A stretch of DNA of 64,000 bases from an uncultured Alphaproteobacteria bacterium (GCA_963742975.1 CAVUNZ010000025.1:20230-84229); one strand, 5' to 3'. Shown: positions 6,064-44,333, counted from the first letter of the stretch. The notes: generated from the sequence alone by a model not told the origin. Program-made: numbers and translations.

Positions 6064-6078
6064 TGGCACGCAGCTTGC
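6064..6078 (+). promoter_or_regulatory. sigma-54 (-24/-12) promoter of flgE
   Basis: TGGCAC-GCAGC-TTGC is a perfect match to TGGCAC-N5-TTGC, about 85 nt upstream of the flgE ATG. Confidence 0.75.
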
Positions 6079-6163
6079 TGCAAGCTGTCCGGGTATGCGG
6101 CTGCCTTGGCGTCGTTGTGATTTCTCAGCCGCCGTCGTGTTGAGATCGAGTTGGAGACAAGTC

Positions 6164-8176
6164 ATGGGTATCTTCGATGCTTTGACCACCGCAGTGGCTG
6201 GTCTTCAGGCACAATCGTTCGCGCTGCAAAACATTTCCGGCAACATCGCCAACTCCCAGACCACCGGATACAAAGAAACCAACACCGCCTTTCAGGATCT
6301 GGTCAATCAAGCCGCGGTCAACTTGCAGACGCCCGACGGCGTTACCGCAAGCTCCATCGCCACCAATACGGTGCAAGGCTCAATCACAAGCACGTCGGTC
6401 GCGACCGATATGGCCATCAACGGCGATGGCTTTTTCGTCGTCTCCAAGCCGACGGGCTTTGTCGATAATCAGCCGACCTTCTCCGGCATCAACGACTATA
6501 CGCGTGCCGGCGATTTCACGATGAACAACAACGGCAACCTGGTCAACAGCGCCGGCTATTATCTGATGGGTATCCCGGTCGATCCGACCACCGGCAATCC
6601 CTTGGGCAGCGTTCCCGAGGTCTTGCAATTCAACAACAATTTCATTCCGGCGGTGGCGACGACATCCGTCAGCTATCAGGCCAACCTGCCGGCGACGCCC
6701 AAGTCGGGCGTCATCAACCCGAATAACTTTGAGGCCAATCCGTTGGCCGGCGCGCCCGTCGCCGCGGAGATCACCGGCAGCGGCGCGACGCTCCAACCGG
6801 ACGCCGCAGCCGTAGGCACCGGCACAGCGACCGGCCTCACCGGCGCTACGACGCTGGCGAGTCTCGGCATCAATGTGAACGATGTTATTTCGGTCAGCGA
6901 CGGCACCAATACGACGTCCTACACTGTGGGTGCAGGTGACACGATCAACACTCTGATGACCGCGATCAACGGCGGCACAGCGGCCGTCACCGCGTCGCTG
7001 TCGGGCGGCAACCTCGTTTTGACCGGAAATAACGATCTCGCCAGCGTCACGGTGTCCGGGACCAGCAACGACGCCACCGATCTCGGCTTCGGCGCTGGAA
7101 ACAACTCGTTTACACCGACCAATCTGCTGACCCAGAGCGCTGTGGCGCAGGGGCAGACCTTTGCCGTCGACGTTATACCTTCCGGCAGCACGGTCGGCAC
7201 GACGGAAACGCTCACCTTCGGCACCGGCGTCGGCCAGGTCGCCACACTGGCCCAATTGCAGACCACGCTGGTCGGCTTGGGCACCAGCAGCGGACTCTTC
7301 AGCGCGACGGTGAATACGGCCAACGGCGATGTGTCGTTGACTGCGACCAACCCGAGCGACAGCATGCAGCTCGTCGGCACCGCTTCGGCCACAAAATTCG
7401 GCATCGAGAATCTTACCGCACTGCCGGCCAGCGGCACCGTGGCTGGCGCCGATAACTCCACGTTCGACTCTGAATCGGTCGACGGCGGCTCCATCACCGC
7501 CTATGACGCAGTCGGCAATCCGGTCAATGTGCAGTTCCGCTGGGCGCAAGTGACGAGCTCGGCGAGCGGCAGCACATGGCAATTGTTCTATCAGAACAAT
7601 TCCTCGGCAACCGGCAGCACGGCGGCCTGGACCAATGTCGGGACCACCTTCACGTTCAACTCGAACGGCGAAATGTCGCCGCAGATCACGTCTCTGACGA
7701 TACCGGGCCTGTCGGTGAACGGCGACGATCTCGGCAACGTGCAGCTGCAGATCGGTACCGACGGCCTGACGCAGTTCGCCAGCACCAGCGGCACGGTGCA
7801 GGTCAATAATCTGCAGCAGAACGGTTATGCGGCGGGGTCGCTGCAATCGGTCTCGGTCGACAGCCAGAACCGCGTGGTCGGCAATTTCACCAACGGTCAG
7901 ACCATTCCGCTTGCCGAGGTCACCTTGGCGTCGTTCAATGGTACCGACTCCCTGCAGGCGCTCAATGGCGGCGCCTATGCCGCGACGCCGGAATCCGGCC
8001 CGCCGAATTACTCCGCGACCGGTAGCATCGAGGGCAGTTCGCTGGAATCCTCGAACGTCGATATCGCCACCCAGTTCAGCCAGCTCATCGTCGCGCAGCA
8101 GGCTTATTCGGCGAATGCTCGCGTCATGACGACCGCCAACCAGATGATTCAGAGCCTGCTCACGGTCATCCAATAG
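6164..8176 (+). CDS. flgE: flagellar hook protein FlgE (670 aa, large central insert)
   Basis: N-terminus MGIFDALTTAVAGLQAQ..NIANSQTTGYK and C-terminus ..QLIVAQQAYSANARVMTTANQM. ATG 6164 follows GGAGA. The longer TTG-started ORF from 6059 was rejected. Confidence 0.9.
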   Translation: MGIFDALTTAVAGLQAQSFALQNISGNIANSQTTGYKETNTAFQDLVNQAAVNLQTPDGVTASSIATNTVQGSITSTSVATDMAINGDGFFVVSKPTGFVDNQPTFSGINDYTRAGDFTMNNNGNLVNSAGYYLMGIPVDPTTGNPLGSVPEVLQFNNNFIPAVATTSVSYQANLPATPKSGVINPNNFEANPLAGAPVAAEITGSGATLQPDAAAVGTGTATGLTGATTLASLGINVNDVISVSDGTNTTSYTVGAGDTINTLMTAINGGTAAVTASLSGGNLVLTGNNDLASVTVSGTSNDATDLGFGAGNNSFTPTNLLTQSAVAQGQTFAVDVIPSGSTVGTTETLTFGTGVGQVATLAQLQTTLVGLGTSSGLFSATVNTANGDVSLTATNPSDSMQLVGTASATKFGIENLTALPASGTVAGADNSTFDSESVDGGSITAYDAVGNPVNVQFRWAQVTSSASGSTWQLFYQNNSSATGSTAAWTNVGTTFTFNSNGEMSPQITSLTIPGLSVNGDDLGNVQLQIGTDGLTQFASTSGTVQVNNLQQNGYAAGSLQSVSVDSQNRVVGNFTNGQTIPLAEVTLASFNGTDSLQALNGGAYAATPESGPPNYSATGSIEGSSLESSNVDIATQFSQLIVAQQAYSANARVMTTANQMIQSLLTVIQ

Positions 8177-8267
8177 CGATGCGGCTATCGCTTCAGCGGC
8201 AAGCCGCATGATCGGCCGCAACGCAATCGGCTGTAACCCAATCGGTTGTAACCCATGGCGCTAATCG

Positions 8268-10142
8268 ATGGGCATTAATCAGGCGCTGTCCGCCGCATTG
8301 TCCGGCATCGCGGTCACCCAGCAGGCCATTTCGGTCATCGCTGGCAACGTCTCCAATTCAAATACGGCCGGCTATGTCGATGAAAGCGTCAGGCAGTCCG
8401 AGCTCGGCACCGCCGGCAAGTCCGGGAGCAGTGTCGAAAGCGACGGCATCAATCGCAATCTCAATACGTTACTGCAGAGCCAGTTGTGGACTGAGACATC
8501 AGGCGGCTCTTATGCCGACACCGTGGCGCAGTTCTATCAGCAACTTCAGGATGTTTACGGCACGCCTGGATCGTCGACCTCGTTCGACGCGATGTTCAAT
8601 AATTTCACGACCGCGCTGCAGTCGCTGTCGACGAGCCCGAGCTCATATTCCAGCCAGTCCGAAGTCTTGAGCGCGGCGCAGTCGCTCGCGCAAAATCTCA
8701 ACTCCATGACGACCAGCGTCCAGGAGCTGCGCACGCAGACGGAAGCCGGGATTGCCACCGACGTGCAGAGCGCCAACGGTCTGTTGCAGAATATCGCGGA
8801 GATCAACACCAAGCTCGAGGGCACCGGTTCCAACCCCGACAGCACCGCGGCGGCGCTCGAGGATCAGCGCGACCAGGACATCACGCAGCTCGCCCAGCTG
8901 ATGAATGTCAACGTGATGCCGGGCTCCAATAATCAAGTCGCGGTCTATACCGGGACCGGGCTGCAGTTGGTGAGTGCGGGCCAGGTCTCGCAGCTGACGT
9001 TCGACAATGCCGGCACGCTGTCGGCGACGTCATTGTGGAGCGATGATCCGAGTCAGGACGGCGCCGGCACCATCACGCTCACCGCGCCGGGCGGCTCCAC
9101 CACTGATTTGATTTCAGACGGCGCCTTTCAATCGGGCCAGATCGGCGCCTATCTGCAGATGCGCGACACTATTCTGCCGCAAGCGCAGGCGCAGCTCGAC
9201 GATTTCGCCAATCAAATGTCGCAGGCTCTGTCGAACCAGACCGTCAATGGAACGGCGGCGAGCTCCGGCGGCCTGAATGGTTTTAGCGTCGACGTCGGCA
9301 GCCTGGTGGCGGGCAATACGGCCCAGTTCACTTATACCGACAGCAGCAACGTGCAGCACACGATCACGGTGGTCGATACGCCGCCGGGGACCTCGCTGCC
9401 GCAGCAGGCGTCGGCGTCGAATCCCAATAACACGACGATAGGTATCGATTTTTCCGCCGGCATAGGCTCGGTCGTCTCGCAGCTGAATTTCGCGTTCGGG
9501 TCGAAGCTGCAATTCTCCAATCCGTCGGGCACGATGCTGCAGGTGGTCAATGCCAACGGCAGCGGCAATGTCGTCAATTCATTGTCAGCGACGTCGACCG
9601 TCACGTCGCTGACCAGCGGCAGTCCGTCAGTGCAGTTGTTCGTCGACGGTATCCAGCCGATCACCGGCGCTTTGACGTCCACCGGCGGCACGCAAACGAC
9701 GGGCCTCGCCGGCCGCATCAGCGTGAATTCGGCGCTCCTCAATTCGCCTGGCAACCTGGTGGCTTATTCTGCGAGTACGACGGCCGGCGACGCGACCCGG
9801 CCGAGTTTCCTGCTGAATCAGATGACCACGGCGTCGCTGACTTATGCTGCGAGCACGGGGATCGGCACAGCGCAAGCGCCGTATAGCGGCACGCTGTCCC
9901 AGTATCTCAGCCAGGTCGTCAGCGTCCAATCGCAGGCGGCGAACGCCGCAACCAACCTGCAGCAGGGTCAGGACACGGTTCTGACCGCTCTGCAGCAGCG
10001 GTTTAACAGCCAGTCCGGAGTCAATATCGACACCGAAATGTCTAACCTCATCGCTCTGCAGAACGCCTACGCCGCCAATGCGCGGGTGATGTCCACCATT
10101 CAGAGCATGATGCAAACATTGCTGCACATAGGCGGCGGATAG
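8268..10142 (+). CDS. flgK: flagellar hook-associated protein 1 FlgK
   Basis: N-terminus ..GNVSNSNTAGY and C-terminus ..EMSNLIALQNAYAANARVMSTIQSM; 624 aa. Confidence 0.9.
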   Translation: MGINQALSAALSGIAVTQQAISVIAGNVSNSNTAGYVDESVRQSELGTAGKSGSSVESDGINRNLNTLLQSQLWTETSGGSYADTVAQFYQQLQDVYGTPGSSTSFDAMFNNFTTALQSLSTSPSSYSSQSEVLSAAQSLAQNLNSMTTSVQELRTQTEAGIATDVQSANGLLQNIAEINTKLEGTGSNPDSTAAALEDQRDQDITQLAQLMNVNVMPGSNNQVAVYTGTGLQLVSAGQVSQLTFDNAGTLSATSLWSDDPSQDGAGTITLTAPGGSTTDLISDGAFQSGQIGAYLQMRDTILPQAQAQLDDFANQMSQALSNQTVNGTAASSGGLNGFSVDVGSLVAGNTAQFTYTDSSNVQHTITVVDTPPGTSLPQQASASNPNNTTIGIDFSAGIGSVVSQLNFAFGSKLQFSNPSGTMLQVVNANGSGNVVNSLSATSTVTSLTSGSPSVQLFVDGIQPITGALTSTGGTQTTGLAGRISVNSALLNSPGNLVAYSASTTAGDATRPSFLLNQMTTASLTYAASTGIGTAQAPYSGTLSQYLSQVVSVQSQAANAATNLQQGQDTVLTALQQRFNSQSGVNIDTEMSNLIALQNAYAANARVMSTIQSMMQTLLHIGGG

Positions 10143-14516: not shown

Positions 14517-14882
14517 TTAGCGCTTGTCGCGCAGGCCGGCGGCAAGGCCGCGATTGATCTTGATGATCGATTTCAGATGGTCCGGCTTCGGCTTGGTCAT
14601 CATCGAGAAAGTCTCGGCCATGACATAGACGCCGAGCCGTCTGATGTTATCGCGAACCTGCTTCGGCAGCCTGTTGGTTTCGTTTGTCACTGCGTCGAGA
14701 AACACCGTCCACAGCCGGCGATTATAGAGCAGTGCTTCGTCGAGGCCGCGCGGCTTGTCAGACCAGGAATCGTGAACGGCCTGCAATTTCGCAGCGGCTT
14801 GCAGCAGCAAATTGGCCTCGAGCTCACGCGGCGACGCCGTCTCAACATTGGTCTTGGCATAGGCGTTGACGGCGTGACGCAT
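14517..14882 (-). CDS. flaF: FlaF flagellar regulator, if translated from the internal ATG
   Basis: Internal ATG 14882 is preceded by AAGGAA. 121 aa, FlaF-like N-terminus AYAKT..ASPRELEA. Confidence 0.6.
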   Translation of the reverse strand: MRHAVNAYAKTNVETASPRELEANLLLQAAAKLQAVHDSWSDKPRGLDEALLYNRRLWTVFLDAVTNETNRLPKQVRDNIRRLGVYVMAETFSMMTKPKPDHLKSIIKINRGLAAGLRDKR

Positions 14883-15257
14883 CTTCAGATGTTCCTTTTC
14901 GTAGGCAATAAGCTTGCGCGCTTCCTTTAAAGCTTTATACGGATCGCCTGTTAAGATTAGGTTGTTGATGCTTTCGATAAAGGGTTCGGCGCTCGGCGCG
15001 GCCTTGAGGAATTCGTCCGCCAGCCGGAAATAGAGCGCGTGGTGCTCTTTCGGGTTCTTGGCCGTGTAAATGAACTGGACAGCGAGATAAATGAGCTTCG
15101 CCAGGCTGTCGGCGCGGCCCAGCGTCATGATGTCCTTTTCGCGCAGGATACGAACCTGGCCTTCGATCTTCAGGCGCGTGCGGGAGCCGGCGTTGGTGAC
15201 AACGCAGTCGCCGAGCAGGATCCGCTCGTTCGGCTTGAGTTCGATTTTTAGGGCCAC
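14517..15257 (-). CDS. flbT: continuous ORF encoding FlbT (flagellin translational regulator) fused in frame to FlaF
   Basis: GTG 15257 lies behind AAGGA. (V)ALKIELKPNERILLGDCVVTN..ILREKDIMT..AKLIYLAVQ is the FlbT part. There is no stop before MRHAVNAYAKT..PRELEANLLL (the FlaF part). Confidence 0.7.
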   Translation of the reverse strand: MALKIELKPNERILLGDCVVTNAGSRTRLKIEGQVRILREKDIMTLGRADSLAKLIYLAVQFIYTAKNPKEHHALYFRLADEFLKAAPSAEPFIESINNLILTGDPYKALKEARKLIAYEKEHLKMRHAVNAYAKTNVETASPRELEANLLLQAAAKLQAVHDSWSDKPRGLDEALLYNRRLWTVFLDAVTNETNRLPKQVRDNIRRLGVYVMAETFSMMTKPKPDHLKSIIKINRGLAAGLRDKR

Positions 15258-15313
15258 GGGACAAATTCCTTGTTGCGAATCCTCGCCGCGCATCAGCATC
15301 GTTGCGCATCGTG

Positions 15314-16631: not shown

Positions 16632-16886
16632 CGTTCCACCTTCGGGTTACAGGCCGTGCTGACTGCAAAGCACCAAACGTTCATTCGGTTCGAGTTCGAG
16701 CTCCGAGAGCACGGGCGAATCCTTGCCGCGGCCAACATGGTTACCGATTATAGTTAACGGAGAACTAATCAGACCGTACGGAATGGAACCGTCGGGCTAA
16801 AGGCTTGTCCTGAAAAGAAAAAAACGGAGCTTTCGCCCCGTTCGCAAACAGCAAAAAATACAGTTTGGCCGTCCCGACCGGCACGG

Positions 16887-16950: not shown

Positions 16951-18108
16951 TTAGCCGAACAGCTTGAGCACCGACTGGTTGGCTTGGTTGGCGATCGACA
17001 GCGCCGAGATTTCCAGCTGCTGCTGGGTCTGCTCGGTGAGCAAGTTGGCGCTTTCCACGTTCTGGTCGGCGACGACCAGGTTGGCGGCGCCGGTCTGCAG
17101 GGTGTTGATCACCGCGTTTTCGAAGCCCTGCCGGGTGCTGATGGTCGACGCGTTGGTGCCGAAGGTTTCGGCCTGCGTCTGCACGGTCGAGAGCGCCGCG
17201 TTGATGCTGGTGACCAGGCTCGAGAGCGTGCTGTCCGACTGGAACGACGTCGCGCCGGAGCCGGAGGTCGCCGACAGGCCGAGACCGGCGGCATTGAAGG
17301 TCACGCCGCTGATGGTCAGTGCGCTGGTGCCGGTCGGGTTGAAGTCGATGGTCAAGCTGTCGCCCTGCAACAGATTGACGCCGTTATAACCGGCGTCGGA
17401 CGCGAGCTGACTGACCTGCGTGAGCAGCGTGTTGAAGTTGCTCTGCAGCGTGCTGCGGGTCGAGCTGGAACCGATCGCGACGTTGTTGGTGGTCGAGTTG
17501 GTCGCCACGCCCAGCGCCGCCGAAGTGGCATTGCCCACAACGGTGAAGCCGATCGGCGCGTTGTTGGAGGTCAGGACCAGGTGACCCGAGCCGTCGTCGG
17601 TCGCGGTCACCGAGCCCGTGCTGCCGAGCCCGGTCGTGCCGTTGATGTCGGCCTCGACTTCGCTCAGCGTCGCGCTGGCGGCGATCGTGACGTTGTAGGT
17701 CGACGAACCGACATCGATGCTGAGCGTGCCGGCGGCGAGGCTGACGTTGGCGGTGGTGAGGCCCAAGCTGGTCCCGCTGGTCGTCGTGGCGGCGGTGGTC
17801 CAGTTCGAGGACTGCGCCTGTTGCACCGTCGACAAAGTCTGCTGCAGCAGGCTGGTGAGGCTGGTGAGGCCGTCGGTGGCCGCGTTGATGGTTTGCGAGC
17901 CCTGGCCAATCTGGTCGAGCAGCGAGCTCAGATTGTTGGCGCTCTGGGTCAAATTCTGCGAGGTGAAGTAGGAGCTCGGATTGTCGGCAGCGGAGTTGAC
18001 CTTCTTGCCGGTCGCCAGCGCTTCCTGAGTGGTGGTCAGGTCGTTGGACGTTTGCGTGAGGGCAAGCAGGTTGGACCGGATGCCCGAGGTTAAGGTGACG
18101 TCAGACAT
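16951..18108 (-). CDS. flagellin paralogue (385 aa)
   Basis: Collinear with the 15471-16631 protein and shares its N and C termini. Confidence 0.95.
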   Translation of the reverse strand: MSDVTLTSGIRSNLLALTQTSNDLTTTQEALATGKKVNSAADNPSSYFTSQNLTQSANNLSSLLDQIGQGSQTINAATDGLTSLTSLLQQTLSTVQQAQSSNWTTAATTTSGTSLGLTTANVSLAAGTLSIDVGSSTYNVTIAASATLSEVEADINGTTGLGSTGSVTATDDGSGHLVLTSNNAPIGFTVVGNATSAALGVATNSTTNNVAIGSSSTRSTLQSNFNTLLTQVSQLASDAGYNGVNLLQGDSLTIDFNPTGTSALTISGVTFNAAGLGLSATSGSGATSFQSDSTLSSLVTSINAALSTVQTQAETFGTNASTISTRQGFENAVINTLQTGAANLVVADQNVESANLLTEQTQQQLEISALSIANQANQSVLKLFG

Positions 18109-18370
18109 AGTTACTACCCTTCTGGTTACAGGCCGTACTGGCGCGCACCGGCGTTGCTACTTCTGTAGGCGCGAGTGCGTTGTCCGATCAGACTGATCGG
18201 TGGCCAAAGGTTTGCCGCATTTCATTTAAGGACGGGTAAAGCCGGGCAGTTTTTGCTCGTAGGCAAATTGTGCAGCGCATCCAAAGCACTTAACCCGCGC
18301 TAGGCCAATGCCGCGCGAAGCCGCGCCACTGCGGAGTTTTTCACGCATGAGGCGGCGCGCGCGTTAAATG

Positions 18371-18484: not shown

Positions 18485-19309
18485 ATGTTGAAAATGCCAA
18501 CAACAGATGCCGGTGCTGCGCAATTGTCCGGCGTGGGATTTTCCGCGCCGCTCCAGCCGACGCCGCCGAGCGTCAATCTTGTCGTCGCCACCCCGTGTTT
18601 CGGTGGGCAAATCTCGGTCGTCTATGCGGCATCGCTGATGAAGCTGCAGAAACTGGTCCGCTCCTACCGCGACTTCGGCATCAAAACGCTGTTCAAGGAC
18701 GGTGACGCGCTTATCACCCGCGCTCGGGCGAGCCTGGTCGCGCAATTTCTCGACGATCCGAGCGCGACGCATCTTCTCTTCATCGACGCTGATATCGGCT
18801 TTGAGCCGCAGCAGGTGCTGCGCCTCATCGAATGCGGCGCCGACATGTGCGCTGCAGTCTATCCGATCAAGCGGATCGACTGGGACAAGGTCAAGGACAC
18901 GCTCGCAGCCGGCCGGCCCAATCCGGCGGCGGCGGCGCTGCAATATGTATTCGAAGTCGATGATCCCAATGCCGTGACCGAGAAGGCCGGATTCATCAAA
19001 GTCCGCTACGCCGGCACCGGGCTCCTGATGATCCGGCGCGAGGCGTTAGAACGTATGTGCGCGCATTATCCGGAGCTGCGCTTCAAGCACGACCACTCGC
19101 TCGATGCCGCGACCGCAAGCGACAACCGCTTCGCTTTGTTCGACACCATGATCGACGACGCGGGAATGTATCTGAGCGAGGATTTTGCTTTTTGCAGGCG
19201 CTGGACCGCCATGGGCGGCGAGATCTGGGCCGATCTCGACAGCAAGCTCCAGCATACCGGTCCGATGACGTTCAACGGCGATCTGTCATCGCAATTCATC
19301 GCAGCCTAG
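18485..19309 (+). CDS. putative GT-A-type glycosyltransferase (family not identified)
   Basis: 274 aa. The pattern ATPCFGG..ITRARASLVAQFL..THLLFIDADIGF (a DxD-like DAD after a beta strand) is typical of GT-A folds. The call comes from that pattern only. Confidence 0.4.
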   Translation: MLKMPTTDAGAAQLSGVGFSAPLQPTPPSVNLVVATPCFGGQISVVYAASLMKLQKLVRSYRDFGIKTLFKDGDALITRARASLVAQFLDDPSATHLLFIDADIGFEPQQVLRLIECGADMCAAVYPIKRIDWDKVKDTLAAGRPNPAAAALQYVFEVDDPNAVTEKAGFIKVRYAGTGLLMIRREALERMCAHYPELRFKHDHSLDAATASDNRFALFDTMIDDAGMYLSEDFAFCRRWTAMGGEIWADLDSKLQHTGPMTFNGDLSSQFIAA

Positions 19310-19324: not shown

Positions 19325-20110
19325 TCAGGCGATCAGATTGACCAGGCTGCCGCTGGCGCCGGAAGACGCCAGAAGCGACGCGGCGCTGGTGGCATTGTGT
19401 GTAAAGGTGCTCTCCAGGCCCGCGGTACTGCTCTTCGTCGAGGTCGAACTCGTGCTCGAACTGCTTGTGGTCGACGATGCGGTCGAAGCTGCGGGCTTGC
19501 TGGCCGGGGTGGGCTTGAAAGTCTGATTGCCGACAGCAAAGCCGATATTACTGGCATAGACGCCGTTGACGCTGATCTGATCGTTGGTGTTTTTGCTGGT
19601 AAGGACGATATTGCCCTTGCTGTTGAGCGTGGCGCTCACTTGGGCGTTGTCCGGCAGGTTGGTATTGATCGTGCTGAGCAGATTGCCGACCGTATCGCTG
19701 CCGGTCGAGGTAAAGGCCGTGGTTTTGCCGTTGGCGCTGACATAGACCGAGCCGCCTTGCGGTATGCCAAGCGTCGAGAGCGGCGTGCTCACCGAAACCG
19801 ACACCTTTCCGGTGCCGACCGCCGGCTTGGCCTTTGTCGCTGCTGCGGAGCTGGAGTTCGTGGAGGACGTCGTCGTTCCGGTTCCGCCGGTGAGGATGCT
19901 CTGAATTTCGGCAGTGATCTGGTTATTGGTGCGCGTCAGCGCTTTGCCGTTGGCAATCGACGCAAGGCCTTTGCCGAGATTGGTTTCGGCGGCGCCCATG
20001 GCGCTGATAAGGGAGTCCGTCGCCGCTAAGGACGAGCTCCAGCGTCCGGTGACCGAACCCCAGGAACTCGCGGCCGACTGCAAAAGCGCACCGATATTGC
20101 TGACGCTCAT
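19325..20110 (-). CDS. Ser/Thr-rich protein of unknown function carrying a flagellin/hook-type variable-domain module
   Basis: 261-aa ORF with no signal peptide. Long S/T tracts flank ..GKTTAFTSTGSDTVGNLLSTINTNLPDNAQVSATLNSKGNIVLTSKN.., which aligns with the flagellin central domain. Confidence 0.6.
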   Translation of the reverse strand: MSVSNIGALLQSAASSWGSVTGRWSSSLAATDSLISAMGAAETNLGKGLASIANGKALTRTNNQITAEIQSILTGGTGTTTSSTNSSSAAATKAKPAVGTGKVSVSVSTPLSTLGIPQGGSVYVSANGKTTAFTSTGSDTVGNLLSTINTNLPDNAQVSATLNSKGNIVLTSKNTNDQISVNGVYASNIGFAVGNQTFKPTPASKPAASTASSTTSSSSTSSTSTKSSTAGLESTFTHNATSAASLLASSGASGSLVNLIA

Positions 20111-20204
20111 TCCAACAATTACCTAGCCGGACCCACTGCCGCCCTGAAGCTTCATGCGCCTGGTTCGGTTAATATCCGGTATCGCCGCGTCTGGTTACCT
20201 TTGA

Positions 20205-20212
20205 TTAACCAT
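20205..20212 (+). promoter_or_regulatory. CtrA half-site TTAACCAT upstream of TPR-glycosyltransferase 1
   Basis: Exact 8-mer about 118 nt upstream of ATG 20330, in the spacer shared with the divergent Ser/Thr-rich gene. Confidence 0.35.
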
Positions 20213-20329: not shown

Positions 20330-22846
20330 ATGAACGATCCCGCAAAGATGCGCCGCCCGCAGACGGTGCGCTCCATTCAAGAGGCGCTGGCGCTGCATCG
20401 GCAGGGCCGTCTCGAGGAAGCAGGGCGGATCTACGACTCGGTTCTTGCCGCCGATCCCAACGACTTCGACGCCTTGCATCTGGGCGGCGTGCTGCGTCAT
20501 CAGCAGGGCCGCTCGGCTGAAGCCCTGCGCCTGGTTGGCGCCGCGCTCAAGGCGCAGCCCGGATCGGCCGACGCGCTGGCGAATTACGGGGTCATTCTCG
20601 ACGCGCTCGAACGCCACGAGGAGGCGCTTGCGGCCTTCGAGAAACTGCTGGCCGTACGCGCCAAGGACGCAACCGCCCACTACAATCGCGGCAATGCGCT
20701 GAAGAAACTCGGCCGCTATGCCGAGGCGCTGGCAAGCTACGAGGAGGCGCTTGCGCTGGCGCCCGGCAATGTCGATGCGCTCTACAATCACGGTAACGCG
20801 CTCTCGGCGCTGGAACGGCACGCGAAGGCGCTTGCCGACTACGACAAAGTGCTGACACAGCGGCCGCGCCACGTGCAGGCGCATAATCGCCGCGCCAATA
20901 CGCTCGCGGCGCTCGGCCGGAACGAAGAGGCCCTCGCCGCCTATGACGCCGCTCTCGCCATCGAGCCAGCTCATGCCGAGGTGCTCAGCAACCGCAGCGT
21001 CACGCTTCTGAAACTCGACCGCGCGGATGCGGCGCTGGAAAGCTGCGAAAGCGCGCTGAAGGCGCGGCCGAATTATGCCGACGCGCTTTACAATCGCGGC
21101 AATGCTCTGCTCGCACAGATGCGGCTTGAGGAAGCGAGCCAGAGCTACGAAGCGGCGCTGACAGTCGAACCGCGCCGCCTCGATGCCTGGAACAATCTCG
21201 GCCTGGTTCTGTTTGCGCAAAAGAAACATGCCGAGGCGATCGCGAGTTACGATCGCGCGCTCGCGCTCGATCCGAACCACCTGCAAGCCCTGCACAACCG
21301 TGCCAATGCGCTGATCGGGCTGAAGTCCTTCGACGAGGCGCTCGCGGCCTGCGACCAGGTCCTCGCGCGCGAAGCGGACCATGTCGACGCGCTCAATAGC
21401 CGTGGCGTCGTCCTCGGCAAGCTCAAGCGTTATCAGGAAGCGCTCGAGACCTATGATCGGGCGCTGGCACTCAAGCCGAACCGTCTCGACATCGAGATCA
21501 ATCGCGGTGGCGCGCTGCTTGAGCTTGATCGTTTTGACGAGGCGCTGGCGAGCTTCGAATCCATCCTGATCCGCGATCCCGACCATGCCGGCGCCTGGAC
21601 CAATAGCGGCACGGTTCTGATCAAACTCAAACGGCCCCAAGAGGCGCTGGCGAAATACGACAAGGCGTTGGAGATCAGTCCCAACTACGCCCATGCCTTG
21701 ACCGTGCGCGGCGCTGCGCTGACGCTCTTGGACCGTAACGAGGAGGCGCTGCGCTGCCATGAACAGGCGCTTGCGCTCGAGCCGGACATGATCGCCGGAC
21801 ACATCAATCTCGGCAATACGCTCGGGATGATGGAACATATGGAGGAGGCGCTCGCCAGCTATGATAAGGCGCTTGCGCTCGAGCCGGAACATGCCGAGGC
21901 CAATTTCAACGCCGCCGTCACGCGGCTTTGCATGGGAGATTTTGAGAACGGCTGGAAGCAGTACGAATATCGCTGGAAGAAGAAGGGCATTGCGTGGCAG
22001 CCGTGGGAGTTCAAGCAGCCGGTGTGGCGCGGCAAGGAGGATCTGCACGGCAAGACGGTGTTGCTGCTCGCCGAACAAGGCCTGGGCGATACGCTCAACT
22101 TCATCCGCTACGCGCCGCTGGTCGCCGACCGCGGCGCAAAGGTTATTGTCGGCGTGCAGAAGCCGCTGAAGGAGCTTGCCGCCACCGTGCCCGGCGTCTC
22201 GGGTGTGCTGACCGACGGCGAGCCGCTGCCCGATTTTGACCTGCATTGCCCGATGCTCGGCCTGCCGGGTGCCTTTGCCACCGACCTTGCGACGATCCCC
22301 GCCAACATTCCTTATTTGCGGCCCTATCGCGACCGGATCGAGAAATGGCATCCGAGGCTGCCGCAAAACGGCCGGATGCGCATCGGCATCGTCTGGGCGG
22401 GCAACGGTTCGCATTTGAACGATCATCACCGTTCGATTGCGCTTGAGCGTTTTGCGCCACTGTTGTCGGTGCCGGGCATCGATTTCATCAGCCTGCAAAA
22501 GGATGTGAACGACGCGCAGGCAGTGATCCTCGACCGGCACGGCGTTCTGAACCTCGGCCGGCAATTCGACGACTTTGCCGATACCGCGGCGGTTCTCGCG
22601 ATGCTCGACCTTCTCATTGCGGTTGACACGTCAGTTGCTCATCTCGCCGGCGCCATGGGCAAGGCGGTCGCGCTCTTGATCCCGTTCGCGCCGGATTGGC
22701 GCTGGCTCCTTCATCGCACCGATACGCCCTGGTATCCGACCATGCGGCTGTTCCGGCAAAGTGCGGTCGGTGATTGGGACAGTCCGCTAGAGCAATTGCG
22801 CCAAGAGCTCAGCGATGCGGCGAACCGTCCCTCGAGGCGGGGATGA
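20330..22846 (+). CDS. TPR-repeat protein with C-terminal GT9/heptosyltransferase-like GT-B domain (FlmG-like architecture), paralogue 1
   Basis: About 17 TPR-like repeats, then EQGLGDTLNFIRYAPL, IPANIPYLRP, RIGIVWAGNGSHLNDHHRS and VDTSVAHLAGAMGKAVALLIP..PWYPTMRLFRQ. Confidence 0.8.
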   Translation: MNDPAKMRRPQTVRSIQEALALHRQGRLEEAGRIYDSVLAADPNDFDALHLGGVLRHQQGRSAEALRLVGAALKAQPGSADALANYGVILDALERHEEALAAFEKLLAVRAKDATAHYNRGNALKKLGRYAEALASYEEALALAPGNVDALYNHGNALSALERHAKALADYDKVLTQRPRHVQAHNRRANTLAALGRNEEALAAYDAALAIEPAHAEVLSNRSVTLLKLDRADAALESCESALKARPNYADALYNRGNALLAQMRLEEASQSYEAALTVEPRRLDAWNNLGLVLFAQKKHAEAIASYDRALALDPNHLQALHNRANALIGLKSFDEALAACDQVLAREADHVDALNSRGVVLGKLKRYQEALETYDRALALKPNRLDIEINRGGALLELDRFDEALASFESILIRDPDHAGAWTNSGTVLIKLKRPQEALAKYDKALEISPNYAHALTVRGAALTLLDRNEEALRCHEQALALEPDMIAGHINLGNTLGMMEHMEEALASYDKALALEPEHAEANFNAAVTRLCMGDFENGWKQYEYRWKKKGIAWQPWEFKQPVWRGKEDLHGKTVLLLAEQGLGDTLNFIRYAPLVADRGAKVIVGVQKPLKELAATVPGVSGVLTDGEPLPDFDLHCPMLGLPGAFATDLATIPANIPYLRPYRDRIEKWHPRLPQNGRMRIGIVWAGNGSHLNDHHRSIALERFAPLLSVPGIDFISLQKDVNDAQAVILDRHGVLNLGRQFDDFADTAAVLAMLDLLIAVDTSVAHLAGAMGKAVALLIPFAPDWRWLLHRTDTPWYPTMRLFRQSAVGDWDSPLEQLRQELSDAANRPSRRG

Positions 22847-24456
22847 GGACGGCGCAGGCGGAAGCAGAGCCGCCGCTGCCCAAGTCAAGCAACATTGCAC
22901 CTAACATCACGCAAGCTTTTGCGCATTATCAGCAAGGCCGGCTTGCGGACGCCGAGACGATCTGCAACGCGATCCTTGCCGCCGAGCCCGAACAGTTCGA
23001 CGCCCTGCATCTGCTTGGTCTGCTGCGCCATGCGCAGAAGCGTAACGCGGAGGCGCTGCAACTCGTCGGTGCAGTGCTCAAACGTGCGCCGCGATCCGCG
23101 GAAGTGCTGAGCAATTACGGACTCGTCCTTGCCGCGCTGAGCCGCCACGAGGAGGCATTGGCATGTTTCGACGAGGCGGTTCGCCACAGCGGGGACTATC
23201 TCAATGCACTGCGGAACCGCGCCGCCGCACTCAAATCTCTCGCGCGCGATGAAGAAGCGCTCGTCGCCTTCGAGGCGATCCTGGCAACGAAGGGCGACGA
23301 TATCGACGCGCTGAACGAATGCGGCGGCCTTCATATGCAACTCGGACAGCCCGATGCCGCGGTTGCCTGCTATGACAGAGCGCTGGCCGCGGCGCCGCGG
23401 GTGGTGGAGCTTCACGTCAACAAGGGCAGCGCACTCGCCACCGTGAACCGCTTTGCCGAAGCTTTGCAAAGTTTTACCGCCGCGATGACGATAGATCGGC
23501 AATGCGCCGACGCCCATCATCGGGCAAGCCTTATCCGCTTGCGGTCCGGCGACTTCAAGCGCGGCTGGCGTGACTACGAGTGGCGCTGGCGCACTCAGCG
23601 CACCGTGAAACGGCGAGAGGTCGCCGCGCCGTTGTGGCTGGGCGATCAGCCGATCCAAGGCAAAACCATATTGCTGCTCGCCGAGCAGGGCTTTGGCGAC
23701 ACCATCCATTTCGCCCGTTATGCGCCGCTCTTAGCCGCGCTCGGCGCGACTGTAATCCTCGATGTGCCATCGCCACTCAAGGAGATCGCGGCGAGCGTTC
23801 CCGGCGTGTCATGGGTGCTGGGTGATGGCGAACGGGCGCCGCCGATCGATTTTTATTGTCCGCTGATGAGCCTACCGCTCGCCTTCCAGACCGAGACCGC
23901 GACCATACCGGCGAACATTCCCTATATCCGCCCATCTGCGGAGCGCCTCGCGAAGTGGCGCGCCAGATTGCCGCGAAACGGCCGTCTGCGGATCGGCTTG
24001 TGCTGGGCCGGCAGCGCCACGCATCTGAACGATCATAATCGCTCCATCGCACTTGAGCGCCTTGCCGGGATTTTATCGCTGCCCAATCTCGACTTCATCA
24101 GCGTGCAAAAGGACGTCAGCGAGCCACAGGCCGCTTTCCTGCAGAGCTATAGTGTCGCTCAACTTGGCCAGAGTTTTGAGAATTTTGCCGACACGGCCGC
24201 AGCTCTTGCCGAGCTCGATCTTCTCGTTTCGGTCGACACGTCGGTCGCCCACCTGGCCGGCGCCATGGGCAAGGCGGTCGCGCTCTTACTGCCGTTGCCG
24301 GCGGAATGGCGGTGGCTGCTCGATCGCAGCGACAGTCCTTGGTATCCGAGCATGCGGTTGTTTCGGCAGATCGCGATCGGCGACTGGGATGGCCCGCTCG
24401 AGCAGCTCTATCGCGAGCTCAGCGCCGTCGCTGCGCGGCGTCCGGCAGCGTCCTAG
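22843..24456 (+). CDS. TPR + GT9-like glycosyltransferase, paralogue 2
   Basis: Its ATG overlaps the stop of paralogue 1 (ATGA at 22843-22846). It has the same C-terminal motifs (EQGFGDTIHFARYAPL, IPANIPYIRP, VDTSVAHLAGAMGKAVALLLP). Confidence 0.8.
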   Translation: MRTAQAEAEPPLPKSSNIAPNITQAFAHYQQGRLADAETICNAILAAEPEQFDALHLLGLLRHAQKRNAEALQLVGAVLKRAPRSAEVLSNYGLVLAALSRHEEALACFDEAVRHSGDYLNALRNRAAALKSLARDEEALVAFEAILATKGDDIDALNECGGLHMQLGQPDAAVACYDRALAAAPRVVELHVNKGSALATVNRFAEALQSFTAAMTIDRQCADAHHRASLIRLRSGDFKRGWRDYEWRWRTQRTVKRREVAAPLWLGDQPIQGKTILLLAEQGFGDTIHFARYAPLLAALGATVILDVPSPLKEIAASVPGVSWVLGDGERAPPIDFYCPLMSLPLAFQTETATIPANIPYIRPSAERLAKWRARLPRNGRLRIGLCWAGSATHLNDHNRSIALERLAGILSLPNLDFISVQKDVSEPQAAFLQSYSVAQLGQSFENFADTAAALAELDLLVSVDTSVAHLAGAMGKAVALLLPLPAEWRWLLDRSDSPWYPSMRLFRQIAIGDWDGPLEQLYRELSAVAARRPAAS

Positions 24457-24461
24457 ATCGT

Positions 24462-24580
24462 ATTGTTTCAGATTAAATTATTTGTCGCTCTAGGATTTCG
24501 ATTGAGCATGACTCTTTCGGAAAGCCGGTTTCCACCCTCGGATCGAGTCCGAGGGCAGGCTTTTTCCGGATCATGCTCTA
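24462..24580 (+). repeat. MITE/REP-like element, full-length copy 2 (with extra internal hairpin)
   Basis: Same left arm TTGTTTCAGATT..GTCGCTCTAGGATTT and same right inverted repeat GAGCATGA..GGATCATGCTCTA. The terminal CTA is the flbY-like stop codon on the other strand. Confidence 0.85.
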
Positions 24581-25030
24581 AAGCGAACGGCTGACCGCGA
24601 GCGGGCGGGCCTGTCTGGGATTGGGCGCGGCGGCGCGTCCGCTCGCGCCATAAACCTGCGGCGCGGCTTTGCGCGCCAGGTCGCTCGACAGCCGGCGCAT
24701 GATGCCTTCGGACACCGAGTGCGCCGTCGCCAGGACCACCATGTTTTTCTTCAGCATGGCACTGAAACCGTCCTGCAGCTTGACCAGCGCGGCACAGTGC
24801 GCGGGCGCAGCCTTACGCAGGAAGACGGCATTGGCCCGCAGCCGTTCGCCCGCGACATAGATCCGCCCGGCGAGCTCGGCCTTGGCCTGCGTCAGGGCCG
24901 AAGCGCCGCGCAGGTGTCCCGCGCGCACCAGCGCGGTTTCCTGCTCGATCATGCCCGACAGCTTCTCGATGAGCGCGGCCAGGTCGGCAAGCATCTTTTC
25001 CGCTTCGGCTGGTGTGGTTACGGGCGTCAT
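24578..25030 (-). CDS. small helical flagellar-operon protein (FlbY / FlgN-like position)
   Basis: 150 aa. Its start overlaps the flgJ stop, and it is the third gene of a flgI-cheL-X operon, as in Caulobacter flgI-cheL-flbY. The assignment is by synteny only. Confidence 0.45.
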   Translation of the reverse strand: MTPVTTPAEAEKMLADLAALIEKLSGMIEQETALVRAGHLRGASALTQAKAELAGRIYVAGERLRANAVFLRKAAPAHCAALVKLQDGFSAMLKKNMVVLATAHSVSEGIMRRLSSDLARKAAPQVYGASGRAAAPNPRQARPLAVSRSL

Positions 25031-35504: not shown

Positions 35505-36022
35505 ACCAAAGTATCGGAATGATCATCGATTGCGTGGTCGCGATCCTGCTCGTGATGACAATCGGTTATTGCATGATGCTCAACCGCAGGCTCAAGCTGC
35601 TCAAGGCCGACGAGCAGTCATTGCGCGCGACGATTTCCGAGCTTGTGACGGCGACCGAAATCGCCGAGCGCGCCATCGGCGGATTGAAGATCACCGTCCA
35701 TGAATGCGACATGGGATTGGGCGAGCGGCTGCGCAAAGCCGAGCGCCTCGCCGGCGATATCGACCGCGCCATGGTGTCCGGCAAGGACCTGATCAGCCGG
35801 CTGTCGCAAATCGTCAGCGCAGGCCGGCGCGCCGATGAGCTGGCGCTTGCCGAGACGCGCGACGCCGCGAAATTCACGGCCAAGAGTGAAACCAAGACCG
35901 AGAGCAAGACAGCCGCCAGCGAAGTCAGGACCGGTCTGAAGATCGATCCGAGAGCCGTGGCCGCTGCGGCGGAAGCCTTTGCCGAGCGGTTGCGCATGAA
36001 GGTCCATGGTCTCGCGGCATGA
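35501..36022 (+). CDS. small membrane-anchored coiled-coil protein (DUF6468-like), flagellar operon member
   Basis: ATGA overlaps with the fliM stop and with the next gene. N-terminal TM segment IIDCVVAILLVMTIGYCMML, then a helical region. Confidence 0.5.
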   Translation: MNQSIGMIIDCVVAILLVMTIGYCMMLNRRLKLLKADEQSLRATISELVTATEIAERAIGGLKITVHECDMGLGERLRKAERLAGDIDRAMVSGKDLISRLSQIVSAGRRADELALAETRDAAKFTAKSETKTESKTAASEVRTGLKIDPRAVAAAAEAFAERLRMKVHGLAA

Positions 36023-36930
36023 TGCGGTTCGTTCGCGATCTGCGGCTTATTCCAATTGCGCTGATCGCGAGTGCCTGTCTGCTCGCGCTCAAGACGGCTG
36101 ACCTCGTTCTCGACAGCGGCTATTTCTTTGCCGCCGACAATATCAATTTCGATGGTGGCGACGCCCAGTTGGTCCGCAGGGGCTCGGGCACGATAGGACC
36201 GCCTGACTCCTGGGCCAAGCAGATGTTCAATTTCCCCGACGGGAAGGGCACTGCTGTGCCGCAGGGCCTGCCGCAGATCATGCCGCGGCGTGCCAACAAC
36301 GCGGTCGTCATCGACAGAGACAATCCGGATATTACCGGCTCCGTTACCGCGCCGCCGGCGAACGGCGCTAAGCCCGACGCCGCGGGTGCCAAGGATGCCA
36401 AGGCAGAGCCCAGCGATCCGCCTCCCGCGCCGCCAGGCCGCATCATTCCGACCGAAGGACCGGTCCCCACCGGCGCCGAGCGCGCCATTCTCGAACGCCT
36501 GCAGCAGCGCCGCGAGGAGATCGACACCCGCGCCCGCGAGCTCGATCTGCGCGAAAGCCTTATTCAAAACGCCGAGAAGCGGATGGATTCGCGGATCGAC
36601 GAACTCAAAGGCGTCGAGTCCCGCATCAAAACCGAAACCGAGCAGAAGAGCGAGACGCAGGATGCGCGCCTCAAGAGCCTCATCACGATCTATGAGAACA
36701 TGAAGCCGCGCGACGCCGCAAAAATCTTCAATGGTCTCGAAGACAGCGTCCTCATCGAAGTCGCCGCCAAGATCAATCCGCGCACCATGGCCGAAATTCT
36801 GGCGCTGATGCAGGCCGATGTCGCCCAGCGCCTGACCGTGGAGCTTGCGAGCAAAGCGCAGCAGGCGCCGCAACCCGGCGGCGGCCCGGGCGATCTGCCG
36901 AAGATCGACGGCCAGCCGACGGCGAAATAG
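36019..36930 (+). CDS. motE: MotE-like / MgtE-N (FlbB) domain periplasmic flagellar protein
   Basis: Signal anchor, a Pro-rich linker, a coiled coil, then ..YENMKPRDAAKIFNGLEDSVLIEVAAKINPRTMAEILALM. Confidence 0.6.
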   Translation: MMRFVRDLRLIPIALIASACLLALKTADLVLDSGYFFAADNINFDGGDAQLVRRGSGTIGPPDSWAKQMFNFPDGKGTAVPQGLPQIMPRRANNAVVIDRDNPDITGSVTAPPANGAKPDAAGAKDAKAEPSDPPPAPPGRIIPTEGPVPTGAERAILERLQQRREEIDTRARELDLRESLIQNAEKRMDSRIDELKGVESRIKTETEQKSETQDARLKSLITIYENMKPRDAAKIFNGLEDSVLIEVAAKINPRTMAEILALMQADVAQRLTVELASKAQQAPQPGGGPGDLPKIDGQPTAK

Positions 36931-42332: not shown

Positions 42333-43090
42333 CTTTGGATCAGCGAGCCGGCGACCAAGGTCCAGCCGTCCACCAGGACGAAAAAGATCAGCTTGAACGG
42401 CAGTGACACCACGACCGGCGGCAACATCATCATGCCCATCGACATCAGGACCGAGGCGACGACCAGGTCGATGATGAGGAACGGCAGGAACAGCAGGAAG
42501 CCGATCTCGAAGGCGCGCCGCAATTCGGAAATCATGAAGGCCGGGATGAGAATGCGCATGGACATATCTTCCGGCTTGTCCGGCGTCTTTTCGCCGGACA
42601 TGTCCATGAACAATTGCAGATCCTTCTCGCGGACGTTCTTCTCCATGAAGCCGCGCAGCGGCACGCTGGCGCGATCGAAGGCCTCGTTGACGGTGATCTG
42701 GTTGTTGACGAGCGGCTGGATGCCGACGTCATAGACCTTGGTCAGGACCGGTCCCATCACGAAGGCGGTCAGAAACAAAGCAAGCGAGATGACGACCGAG
42801 TTCGGCGGCGCCGTCGCCGTGCCGAGCGCGGTGCGCAGCAGCGACAGCACGACGACGATCCGCGTGAACGACGTCATCATGATGAGGATGGACGGCGCCA
42901 GCGACAGCACTGTCAGCAGCGCGATCAGTTGAATGACGCGCTCGTTCAGTCCACCGCCGCCGGCGGTGCCCTGGCCGAAATTGATGCTGATATCCTGCGC
43001 GGCGAGCGGCGTCGCCGAGAACAAAAGAACCGCTACAGAGGCCGCTACGGTTATGAACCGAACGCGGCGGCCTCCTAACGCGAGCGTCAA
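42320..43090 (-). CDS. fliP: flagellar type III export pore protein FliP
   Basis: Signal peptide plus ..LTVLSLAPSILIMMTSFTRIVVVLSLLR..PNSV... The TTG start overlaps the fliO stop. Confidence 0.95.
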   Translation of the reverse strand: MTLALGGRRVRFITVAASVAVLLFSATPLAAQDISINFGQGTAGGGGLNERVIQLIALLTVLSLAPSILIMMTSFTRIVVVLSLLRTALGTATAPPNSVVISLALFLTAFVMGPVLTKVYDVGIQPLVNNQITVNEAFDRASVPLRGFMEKNVREKDLQLFMDMSGEKTPDKPEDMSMRILIPAFMISELRRAFEIGFLLFLPFLIIDLVVASVLMSMGMMMLPPVVVSLPFKLIFFVLVDGWTLVAGSLIQSYGT

Positions 43091-44145: not shown

Positions 44146-44333
44146 CCGCACTACTCCCCGTTTCGCCTCGGCGCTCTTGTCGGTCCCCAAAAGTTAACAG
44201 CGCCGGAAATACTTGCCGCCGTGATTACTAACAAACAATTAAAAATCATAGCCGAATTTCGTGACAAAGCCGATGGATGAAGCTTTTTCATGGTAAACGG
44301 CAGATTAATGGCAAAACCGCTTTGAAACCGCCT

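Follow-up and report, generated by a model that had tools for sequence, protein, structure and literature searches.

The 261-aa protein encoded in the flagellar gene cluster of an uncultured member of the Alphaproteobacteria is the representative of a new family built on a known domain, and it is a conserved component of that cluster. Judged by sequence and profile comparison, its core duplicates the surface-exposed Flagellin_IN-type domain of the hook protein FlgE and, more distantly, of the flagellins, and its termini are novel, not D0/D1 polymerization helices. The gene was analyzed in the context of the window, i.e., the whole stretch of DNA under study with a length of 64,000 nucleotides. 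The features discussed below are collected in Table 1.

Table 1. Coordinates of the 261-aa gene, the parts of its product, and the neighboring features in the window.
Feature	Position	Strand	Remarks
Hook protein FlgE	6161..8176	+	Pfam rod/hook domains; two tandem modules
Flagellin 2, 386 aa	15471..16631	-	Source of the flagellin segment quoted in the original prediction
Flagellin 1, 385 aa	16951..18108	-	Flagellin_N and Flagellin_C matches; central module distantly related to the core
GT-A-fold glycosyltransferase-like protein, 274 aa	18485..19309	+	AF2 and Foldseek
Gene of the 261-aa protein	19325..20110	-	ORF call; stop codon 19325-19327
C-terminal tail, residues 237-261	19328..19402	-	Conserved, SAASLLAxSGASGSLVNLIA
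Ser/Thr-rich linker 2, residues 202-236	19403..19507	-	55% Ser/Thr; pLDDT <50
Beta-rich folded core, residues 95-201	19508..19828	-	AF2 pLDDT 82-90; Flagellin_IN-type module
Ser/Thr-rich linker 1, residues 75-94	19829..19888	-	58% Ser/Thr; pLDDT <50
N-terminal region, residues 1-74	19889..20110	-	Conserved in alignment A1
CtrA-type box, TTAA-N7-TAAC overlapping TTAACCAT	20194..20212	.	Shared divergent promoter region
TPR + GT9-like glycosyltransferase	20330..22846	+	TPR matches; ~838 aa from the probable ATG
Second TPR + GT9-like glycosyltransferase	22774..24456	+	TPR matches; Glyco_transf_9 weak, E 0.011

The frame of the 261-aa protein has a GC3 of 0.77, compared with 0.44 in the ORF overlapping it on the opposite strand, and the comparison of the gene with five orthologues gave dN/dS values of 0.28–0.42. 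From this codon bias and these ratios, we conclude that the gene is a genuine one that evolves under moderate purifying selection. All the peptides quoted in the original prediction were located in its product, namely TGGTGTTTSSTNSSSAAAT at residues 74–92, ASTASSTTSSSSTSSTSTKSST at residues 208–229, and the central segment at residues 119–183.

A search of 5.8 billion proteins returned at least 391 homologues of 250–280 aa, all of which are unnamed or labelled after their low-complexity content. The labels "adhesin" or "mucin" occur on some of them. When the family profile was searched against 1.84 billion representative proteins, 140 clusters were found in total. For the genome scan, one genome per species was used. 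It returned 74 loci, 66 with the full-length gene and the other eight with the module inside FlgE; the 66 loci together with two more (L001 and L002) made up the set of 68 full-length loci used for the study of synteny. A cultured carrier was sought and none was found, as all 74 genome loci and all the named homologues are from MAGs. The carriers with a family name belong mostly to the Xanthobacteraceae, and most of the others are listed merely as uncultured Alphaproteobacteria. Neither Pfam nor NCBIfam holds a model covering the family. The homologue, profile, and genome searches thus indicate that the family is genuine but restricted to a single uncultured lineage of soil bacteria. The protein had been called an orphan, a description that does not fit at least 391 homologues and a constant synteny.

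The alignment of 40 family members (A1) and the AlphaFold (AF2) model agree on a five-part anatomy of the protein (Table 1). Residues 1 to ~30–34 are predicted to be disordered, and a long helix is predicted at residues 25–73 with a pLDDT of 50–64. The motif of this N-terminal helix, GKGLAsIANgxALxRtNnQI, is invariant across A1, the invariant residues being G48, I52, A53, N54, A57, L58, and R60. The two Ser/Thr-rich linkers vary in length across the family, from 11 to 42 aa for linker 1 and from 31 to 60 aa for linker 2. In the C-terminal tail, where helices are predicted with low AF2 confidence, the residues A243, A244, L247, S250, G251, G254, S255, L256, and V257 are nearly invariant in A1. 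The entire protein has no cysteine and 20 charged residues, and Ser and Thr make up 34.5% of it, which, together with the 55–58% in the linkers, bears out its earlier description as Ser/Thr-rich. Its composition resembles that of FlgE, FlgK, FlgL, and flagellin encoded nearby. No stretch of the 261-aa protein is sufficiently hydrophobic to be taken for a signal peptide or membrane helix; the N-terminal hydrophobic segment and the Sec-type N-terminus are absent, as had been claimed.

The original prediction also stated that the protein lacks flagellin termini, and the profile searches agree with it. Flagellin_N (PF00669) matched neither the 261-aa protein (E ≤ 1) nor the 40 family members (E ≤ 10), and Flagellin_C (PF00700) gave no match in either. 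When residues 1–80 and residues 228–261 were compared separately with the flagellin family by hhalign, the probabilities were 0.8% and 0.0%, respectively. Flg_bb_rod and Flg_bbr_C were likewise found neither in the protein nor in the 40 members, and with either terminus, the hhalign probability for the FlgE and FlgK families did not exceed 0.2%. The profile–profile comparison of the isolated termini with FlgL, FlgJ, the FlgN-like 150-aa protein, and FlbT–FlaF returned nothing, and neither the N-terminal helix nor the C-terminal tail has a counterpart in Pfam, NCBIfam, or the PDB. The D0/D1 helices are the polymerizing parts of FlgE and flagellin. As its termini are unlike those of flagellin, FlgE, FlgK, and FlgL, the 261-aa protein should be classified neither as a flagellin nor as an axial protein. 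A likeness of the N-terminal helix to flagellin ND0/ND1 and of the tail to the flagellin C-terminus, seen by eye, was rejected because the profile–profile comparison of the isolated termini was empty. The HMMER alignment of the protein to the related flagellin P0208 is unsupported outside the core.

The searches for other flagellar families gave a similar picture. FlgD (PF03963, PF13860) and Flg_hook (PF02120) had no match in the 261-aa protein or the 40 members, FliD_N and FliD_C were found with neither Pfam nor NCBIfam, and no FliD was present among the PDB sequences matched by the profile. The rod/hook gate-recognition motif FxxxPhi was considered and rejected: F9 is conserved, whereas half of the family lacks a hydrophobic residue at the fifth position. 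No export-gate motif, chaperone-binding site, or axial heptad termini could be recognized in the 261-aa protein.

The origin of the core was examined by sequence and profile comparison. With the core as the query, tblastn found a single other match in the window, at positions 6860–7120 inside the FlgE gene (E 8e-8). The comparison of the family profile with the FlgE profile by hhalign gave a probability of 99.8% (E 9.5e-28), with matches at FlgE residues 211–322 and 313–438, the second of these tandem modules being the weaker one. The module that had been proposed to be shared with inserts in FlgE is thereby well supported. The closest relative of the core is the first FlgE module, encoded at 6860–7120, with an identity of 38% in the window and of 45–62% in the relatives. 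When cores were compared with FlgE modules, the identity was 40–62%, which is close to the 50–70% that most orthologues of the 261-aa protein share with each other.

The proposed relation to the center of the flagellins turned out to be weaker but real. Against the flagellin family of these loci, the hhalign probability was 78.5% (E 1.7e-5), and the register was the one proposed earlier. The related flagellin P0208, found in the profile search with an E of 1.5e-11 against the whole library, has two modules that are nearly as similar to the core as the FlgE module is. Such flagellins with very similar modules bridge the gap between the core and the center of the window flagellin.

The non-family matches that were checked in the profile search of 1.84 billion proteins are FlgE proteins and flagellins with Flagellin_IN, and Pfam places Flagellin_IN (PF07196) on the module in the related FlgE proteins and flagellins matching the family profile. 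PF07196 also matches 17 of the 40 family members (best E 2.8e-5), with no direct match to the 261-aa protein of the window itself. Flagellin_IN is a motif of ~55 residues around a conserved Ile-Asn that occurs in hook proteins and flagellins. The family has it: N149 of ...STIN... is invariant in A1, and the motif ...TSTGsDTVGdLlsAIN... of the Flagellin_IN domain of FlgE and the flagellins is kept in the core. The module had been likened to DUF1522 (PF07482), which has no match in the 261-aa protein or in flagellin 1 (16951–18108) at E ≤ 1, and which is missing from the 17 families that were listed when the 40 members were searched at E ≤ 10; Flagellin_IN fits instead.

The search of the PDB with the core model by Foldseek gave modest matches. 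Most were to outer domains, namely those of flagellins, of FliD and FlgK, and of the hook of Campylobacter, and outer domains of phage tail sheaths were matched as well. Searched by sequence and profile, the PDB yielded no significant match, the best hits being unrelated viral glycoproteins (E 0.23).

In FlgE and the flagellins, the module is inserted in an axial protein, whereas in the 261-aa protein it is free-standing, flanked by low-complexity linkers and, beyond these, by unrelated termini. An early duplication of the hook insert within the lineage is the simplest history of the core. Concerted evolution of the core and the FlgE module was considered and rejected, as the within-genome identities are not above the between-genome ones and there is no sign of gene conversion.

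The window contains a Caulobacter-type flagellar cluster. It encodes FlgE, FlgK, FlgL, a fused FlbT–FlaF, and the two flagellins and, beyond the 261-aa gene and the two TPR-glycosyltransferases (TPR-GTs) of Table 1, an FlgN-like protein (150 aa, 24578–25030), FlgJ, FlgI, FliX, DksA, and a third TPR-glycosyltransferase. Further parts are FlgH, FlgA, FlgG, FlgF, FliL, FliM, and FliP as well as FlgB, FlgC, FliE, FliQ, FliR, and FlhB. Neighbors of a modification type are also present, namely a CmcI-type methyltransferase and an Asn-synthase-type amidotransferase. Genes for the synthesis of pseudaminic acid were not seen in the window. A 435-aa ORF at 35566–36873 on the minus strand was considered as a possible FliK and discarded, as the translated sequence resembles that of a spurious antisense frame.

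The 261-aa gene lies between the GT-A-fold gene and the TPR-GTs, as the original prediction had placed it. The listed ORF of the first TPR-GT starts at 20201 and its probable ATG is at 20330. The C-terminal domain of the TPR-GTs has more than 8000 relatives, some of which are named heptosyltransferase or GT9. The GT-A-like gene is convergent with the 261-aa gene and divergent from the flagellin genes. Its 274-aa product has no match in Pfam; the AF2 model (pTM 0.72) was matched by Foldseek to GT-A enzymes (E 1.7e-7), and D101-A-D103 (DxD) is invariant in the alignment of this neighbor (A2). The match of the model together with the invariant residues indicates that this protein has a GT-A fold with a DxD motif.

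The order FlgI–FlgJ, TPR-GTs, 261-aa gene, GT-A, flagellins, FlbT/FlaF, and FlgL–FlgK–FlgE is conserved over the 68 loci. The ~840-aa TPR-GT is divergent from the 261-aa gene in every full-length locus with recognizable neighbors, a single locus (L056) being without any. In the rearranged clusters, two pairs are kept: the 261-aa gene with the ~840-aa TPR-GT, and the GT-A gene with the flagellin gene in divergent orientation. One genome (locus L073) carries two tandem copies of the 261-aa gene.

The divergent region between the 261-aa gene and the TPR-GT gene is 219 bp long and contains the CtrA-type box. The sequence TTAA-N7-TAAC has two matches in the window versus 0.07 expected, and TTAACCAT occurs six times versus 0.37 expected; all six copies lie where a flagellar operon starts or a short distance upstream. 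The box is also conserved upstream of the orthologues. No sigma-54-type promoter was found upstream of the 261-aa gene, the only one being upstream of flgE (6064–6079), and the 5'-leader motif common to both flagellin genes is absent from it. Going by these motifs, the 261-aa gene seems to share its regulation with the glycosyltransferase gene and the early operons, not with the flagellins. Since the gene has a CtrA-type box and neither a sigma-54 site nor the flagellin leader, its co-regulation with the late exported substrates is not obvious.

As to the function, we tentatively favor, short of calling it probable, an exported and O-glycosylated accessory protein that works at the surface of the hook or filament. 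Such a protein would be made in the cytoplasm with no Sec signal, and its Ser/Thr-rich segments would be O-glycosylated by the surrounding flagellar glycosylation enzymes, most likely by the TPR-GT that shares the promoter region with its gene. After glycosylation, it would leave the cell by way of the flagellar type III apparatus. Once outside, it may have a decorating or assembly-assisting role, played via the domain that FlgE and flagellin also display, and it would not polymerize as an axial subunit.

Several observations point to flagellar type III export: the composition, the lack of a Sec signal, the disordered N-terminus, the extracellular position of the homologous domains, and the fast evolution. 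The domains homologous to the core are extracellular in FlgE and flagellin, consistent with the Foldseek matches to outer domains, and the 261-aa protein evolves faster than its cytoplasmic neighbors, with ~55% identity where the GT-A protein has ~80%. O-glycosylation is suggested by the Ser/Thr-rich linkers, by the enzymes encoded around the gene, and by its constant pairing with one TPR-GT. Against the favored explanation stand the lack of a recognizable export-gate motif, chaperone-binding site, or axial heptad termini, and the promoter, which has a CtrA-type box like those of the early operons and neither a sigma-54 site nor the flagellin leader. The AF2 confidence is low at both termini, and a rigid structural role fits poorly with the long flexible linkers. 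The evidence agrees with export and glycosylation without telling a decorator from a decoy or a cap.

A different role, which we consider rather unlikely though the best of the alternatives, is that of a cytoplasmic decoy, adaptor, or checkpoint, in which a soluble copy of the module binds the TPR-GT(s) or FlbT–FlaF. The 261-aa protein may then tune or time glycosylation, or its own export may report the completion of the hook–basal body, like the Caulobacter regulatory flagellin FljJ. The divergent pairing with the ~840-aa TPR-GT, the common promoter region, and the CtrA-type box like that of the early genes would suit such a role, and the highly conserved short N-terminal motif suits a specific protein–protein interface. 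The protein is, however, without similarity to flagellin D0/D1, the region which the binding partners of flagellin would be expected to recognize. The absence of the flagellin 5'-leader motif from its gene also speaks against a decoy, and its composition and fast evolution resemble those of an exported surface protein.

Two known systems bear on this alternative, the first of them also on the O-glycosylation in the favored explanation. FlmG-type enzymes recognize their substrates via the TPR domain, and the TPR domain of Caulobacter FlmG binds flagellins (PMC7591256). The neighboring enzymes resemble FlmG by architecture, with TPR and GT-B parts, and the adjacent 261-aa protein is Ser/Thr-rich; unlike the substrates of FlmG, it is no flagellin, and the pseudaminic-acid genes are not seen in the window. 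Among the six flagellins of Caulobacter, one is a regulatory paralogue (PMC7591256). Campylobacter FlaC and Vibrio FlaE/FlaF are known as non-structural relatives of flagellin that the flagellum exports, and Caulobacter FljJ as a regulatory flagellin (PMC8306008, PMC7591256). Like them, the 261-aa protein would be an accessory paralogue that is found in a flagellar gene context and is not filament-forming. However, these proteins keep the flagellin termini, FlaC being without the central domain, and the 261-aa protein is the inverse, with the central surface module and no such termini.

It is improbable, in our estimate, that the protein is a minimal cap or scaffold, i.e., a very reduced functional analogue of FliD (HAP2, the filament cap) or FlgD (the hook cap), with the terminal helices as the legs and the Flagellin_IN domain as the lid. 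To our knowledge, the alphaproteobacterial flagellar systems of the FlaF/FlbT type have no recognizable FliD, and no Pfam match to FliD, FlgD, or FliK was found within the cluster of the window. Many FliD proteins carry the Flagellin_IN motif in their head domains, and FliD is itself a substrate of flagellar type III export. The order of the parts in the 261-aa protein, an N-terminal helix, a beta-rich head of the Flagellin_IN type, and a C-terminal helix, recalls FliD, and several FliD D2–D3 structures are among its weak fold matches by Foldseek (E 0.02–0.2). However, even the smallest FliD is about twice as large as the protein, which has no D1, and in place of rigid connections, flexible Ser/Thr-rich linkers of 20–40 low-complexity residues join the head to both helices, which makes it unfit for a rigid cap. 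The small size as such also counts against a cap, and no FliD_N, FliD_C, or FlgD profile and no PDB sequence was matched. Moreover, the family is confined to one clade, whereas the absence of FliD is far more widespread.

The appeal of a cap comes from other bacteria. FliD is reported to be absent in the Rhizobiaceae (PMC6913195) and in Phaeobacter inhibens (PMC12363192). In P. inhibens without the lineage-specific protein CP1, flagellin is secreted and no filament is formed; CP1 is encoded in the fliC–flaF–flbT–CP1 cluster conserved in related Rhodobacterales, and it went undetected in the exoproteome (PMC12363192). The idea is attractive because FliD is missing in both of these groups and the loss of CP1 blocks assembly. 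CP1 resembles the 261-aa protein by description only: it is a lineage-specific, uncharacterized protein of a flagellar cluster, in its case one with fliC–flaF–flbT in a FliD-less system. Taken furthest, the 261-aa protein might be the missing terminal assembly factor of a FliD-less flagellum, either a heavily glycosylated minimal cap or a protein of the tip or hook surface, made from a reused outer domain of the hook, which we regard as a long shot. If true, fast-evolving lineage-specific proteins would supply the cap or decoration functions in alphaproteobacterial flagella.

Export by another route, for example by a type I system via the C-terminal tail, would make the protein a Ser/Thr-rich adhesin or matrix protein with a loose link to the flagellum. 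The lack of an N-terminal signal and of cysteine, the conserved extreme C-terminus with its hydrophobic ending (LVNLIA, LVDMLA), the weak HCBP_related matches in 20 of the 40 family members, and the "adhesin" and "mucin" source labels of some homologues would all fit it. However, no gene for an ABC transporter, a membrane-fusion protein, or TolC lies nearby, the flagellar synteny is strict, the core is derived from the hook protein, and the source labels reflect merely the low-complexity Ser/Thr content, which leaves this explanation very improbable.

Finally, an open frame arisen by chance or the fragment of a decaying gene might be suspected from the low-complexity, Ser/Thr-rich sequence, the lack of a matching database family, and the long overlapping ORF on the opposite strand, but its probability is negligible, being refuted already by the conservation data: besides the GC3 and dN/dS values given above, there are full-length orthologues (250–270 aa) in more than 70 species-level genomes, invariant residues in three separate regions of the family, and a confidently predicted fold of the core.

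The outer domain of a flagellin or hook protein normally appears only as an insert in the polymerizing subunit; here, such a domain is a separate conserved gene product, and this released outer domain is tied to a glycosyltransferase gene. If the 261-aa protein is exported and glycosylated, it would represent a flagellar surface component of a new kind, occurring in abundant soil bacteria, and a useful small model substrate for the TPR-type protein O-glycosyltransferases. If it is a decoy or an adaptor instead, it would represent a new way of controlling flagellar glycosylation. The family adds to the evidence that the FliD-less flagellar clusters of the Alphaproteobacteria carry essential lineage-specific uncharacterized proteins.

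The hook protein FlgE encoded in the window is unusually large (671 aa) because it carries two tandem modules of the Flagellin_IN type. Two copies of this module were also found in some related flagellins, for example in P0208, a 494-aa flagellin from the profile search. Tandem duplication of the gene for the 261-aa Ser/Thr-rich protein (19325-20110) was seen in one related MAG (L073), where the two copies (6976-7767 and 7908-8711) adjoin the TPR-glycosyltransferase gene.

The top Foldseek matches of the core of the Ser/Thr-rich protein (residues 95-201, window 19508-19828) included the outer domains of phage tail sheaths, namely those of Agrobacterium phage Milano and of cyanophage A-1(L), the latter at 24-26% identity. 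Weak matches to the Pfam family DUF348, which is described as ubiquitin-like, were obtained for 27 of the 40 aligned family members. Taken together, these matches indicate that the core may contain a beta-grasp-like unit that it shares with phage sheaths.

Features located in the window
Feature	Position	Strand	Remarks
Sigma-54-type promoter TGGCACGCAGCTTGCT	6064-6079	+	~97 nt upstream of FlgE start
FlgE	6161-8176	+	modules at residues ~211-322 and ~313-438
FlbT-FlaF fusion	14517-15299	-	one ORF, 260 aa
Leader ACGGCCTGTAACC(A/C)GAAGG	16632-16700 and 18109-18180	-	just 5' of flagellin start codons
Predicted GT-A-fold protein	18485-19309	+	274 aa; structure prediction and DAD motif
Full CtrA-type box	20194-20208	-	
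CtrA half-site TTAACCAT	12708, 20205, 26664, 33431(-), 33596, 44345		
435-aa ORF	35566-36873	-	passed codon filter
367-aa ORF	43087-44190	-	between fliP and flgB

The 274-aa protein, which had no match in Pfam or NCBIfam, is predicted from structure modelling to have a GT-A glycosyltransferase fold, and its DAD motif is invariant. Its family has more than 5000 members, all of them unnamed. Across the loci compared, its gene is always divergent from a flagellin gene. The 367-aa ORF, having a single N-terminal membrane helix followed by a long proline-rich tail, may encode an extended FliO-like protein. The translation of the 435-aa ORF is rich in Arg, Ala and Leu and looks like that of a spurious antisense frame; the real gene may be the overlapping ORF 36019-36930 on the plus strand.

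The search for sigma-54-type promoters in the window gave a single instance, upstream of flgE, which is kept at this place in related MAGs; none was found upstream of the flagellin genes or the gene for the Ser/Thr-rich protein. Both flagellin genes share a leader, absent before the gene for the Ser/Thr-rich protein, that could be the target site of FlbT. While FlbT and FlaF are separate proteins in Caulobacter, both are encoded here by a single fused ORF, as in most related loci (about 245-260 aa).

The CtrA half-site occurs six times in the window versus 0.37 expected, and every copy lies at a flagellar operon start or shortly upstream of it (AsnS/methyltransferase, Ser/Thr-rich protein/TPR-GT, fliX, flgF/fliL and flgB). 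This excess and placement suggest that the early flagellar and glycosylation genes are under direct CtrA control.
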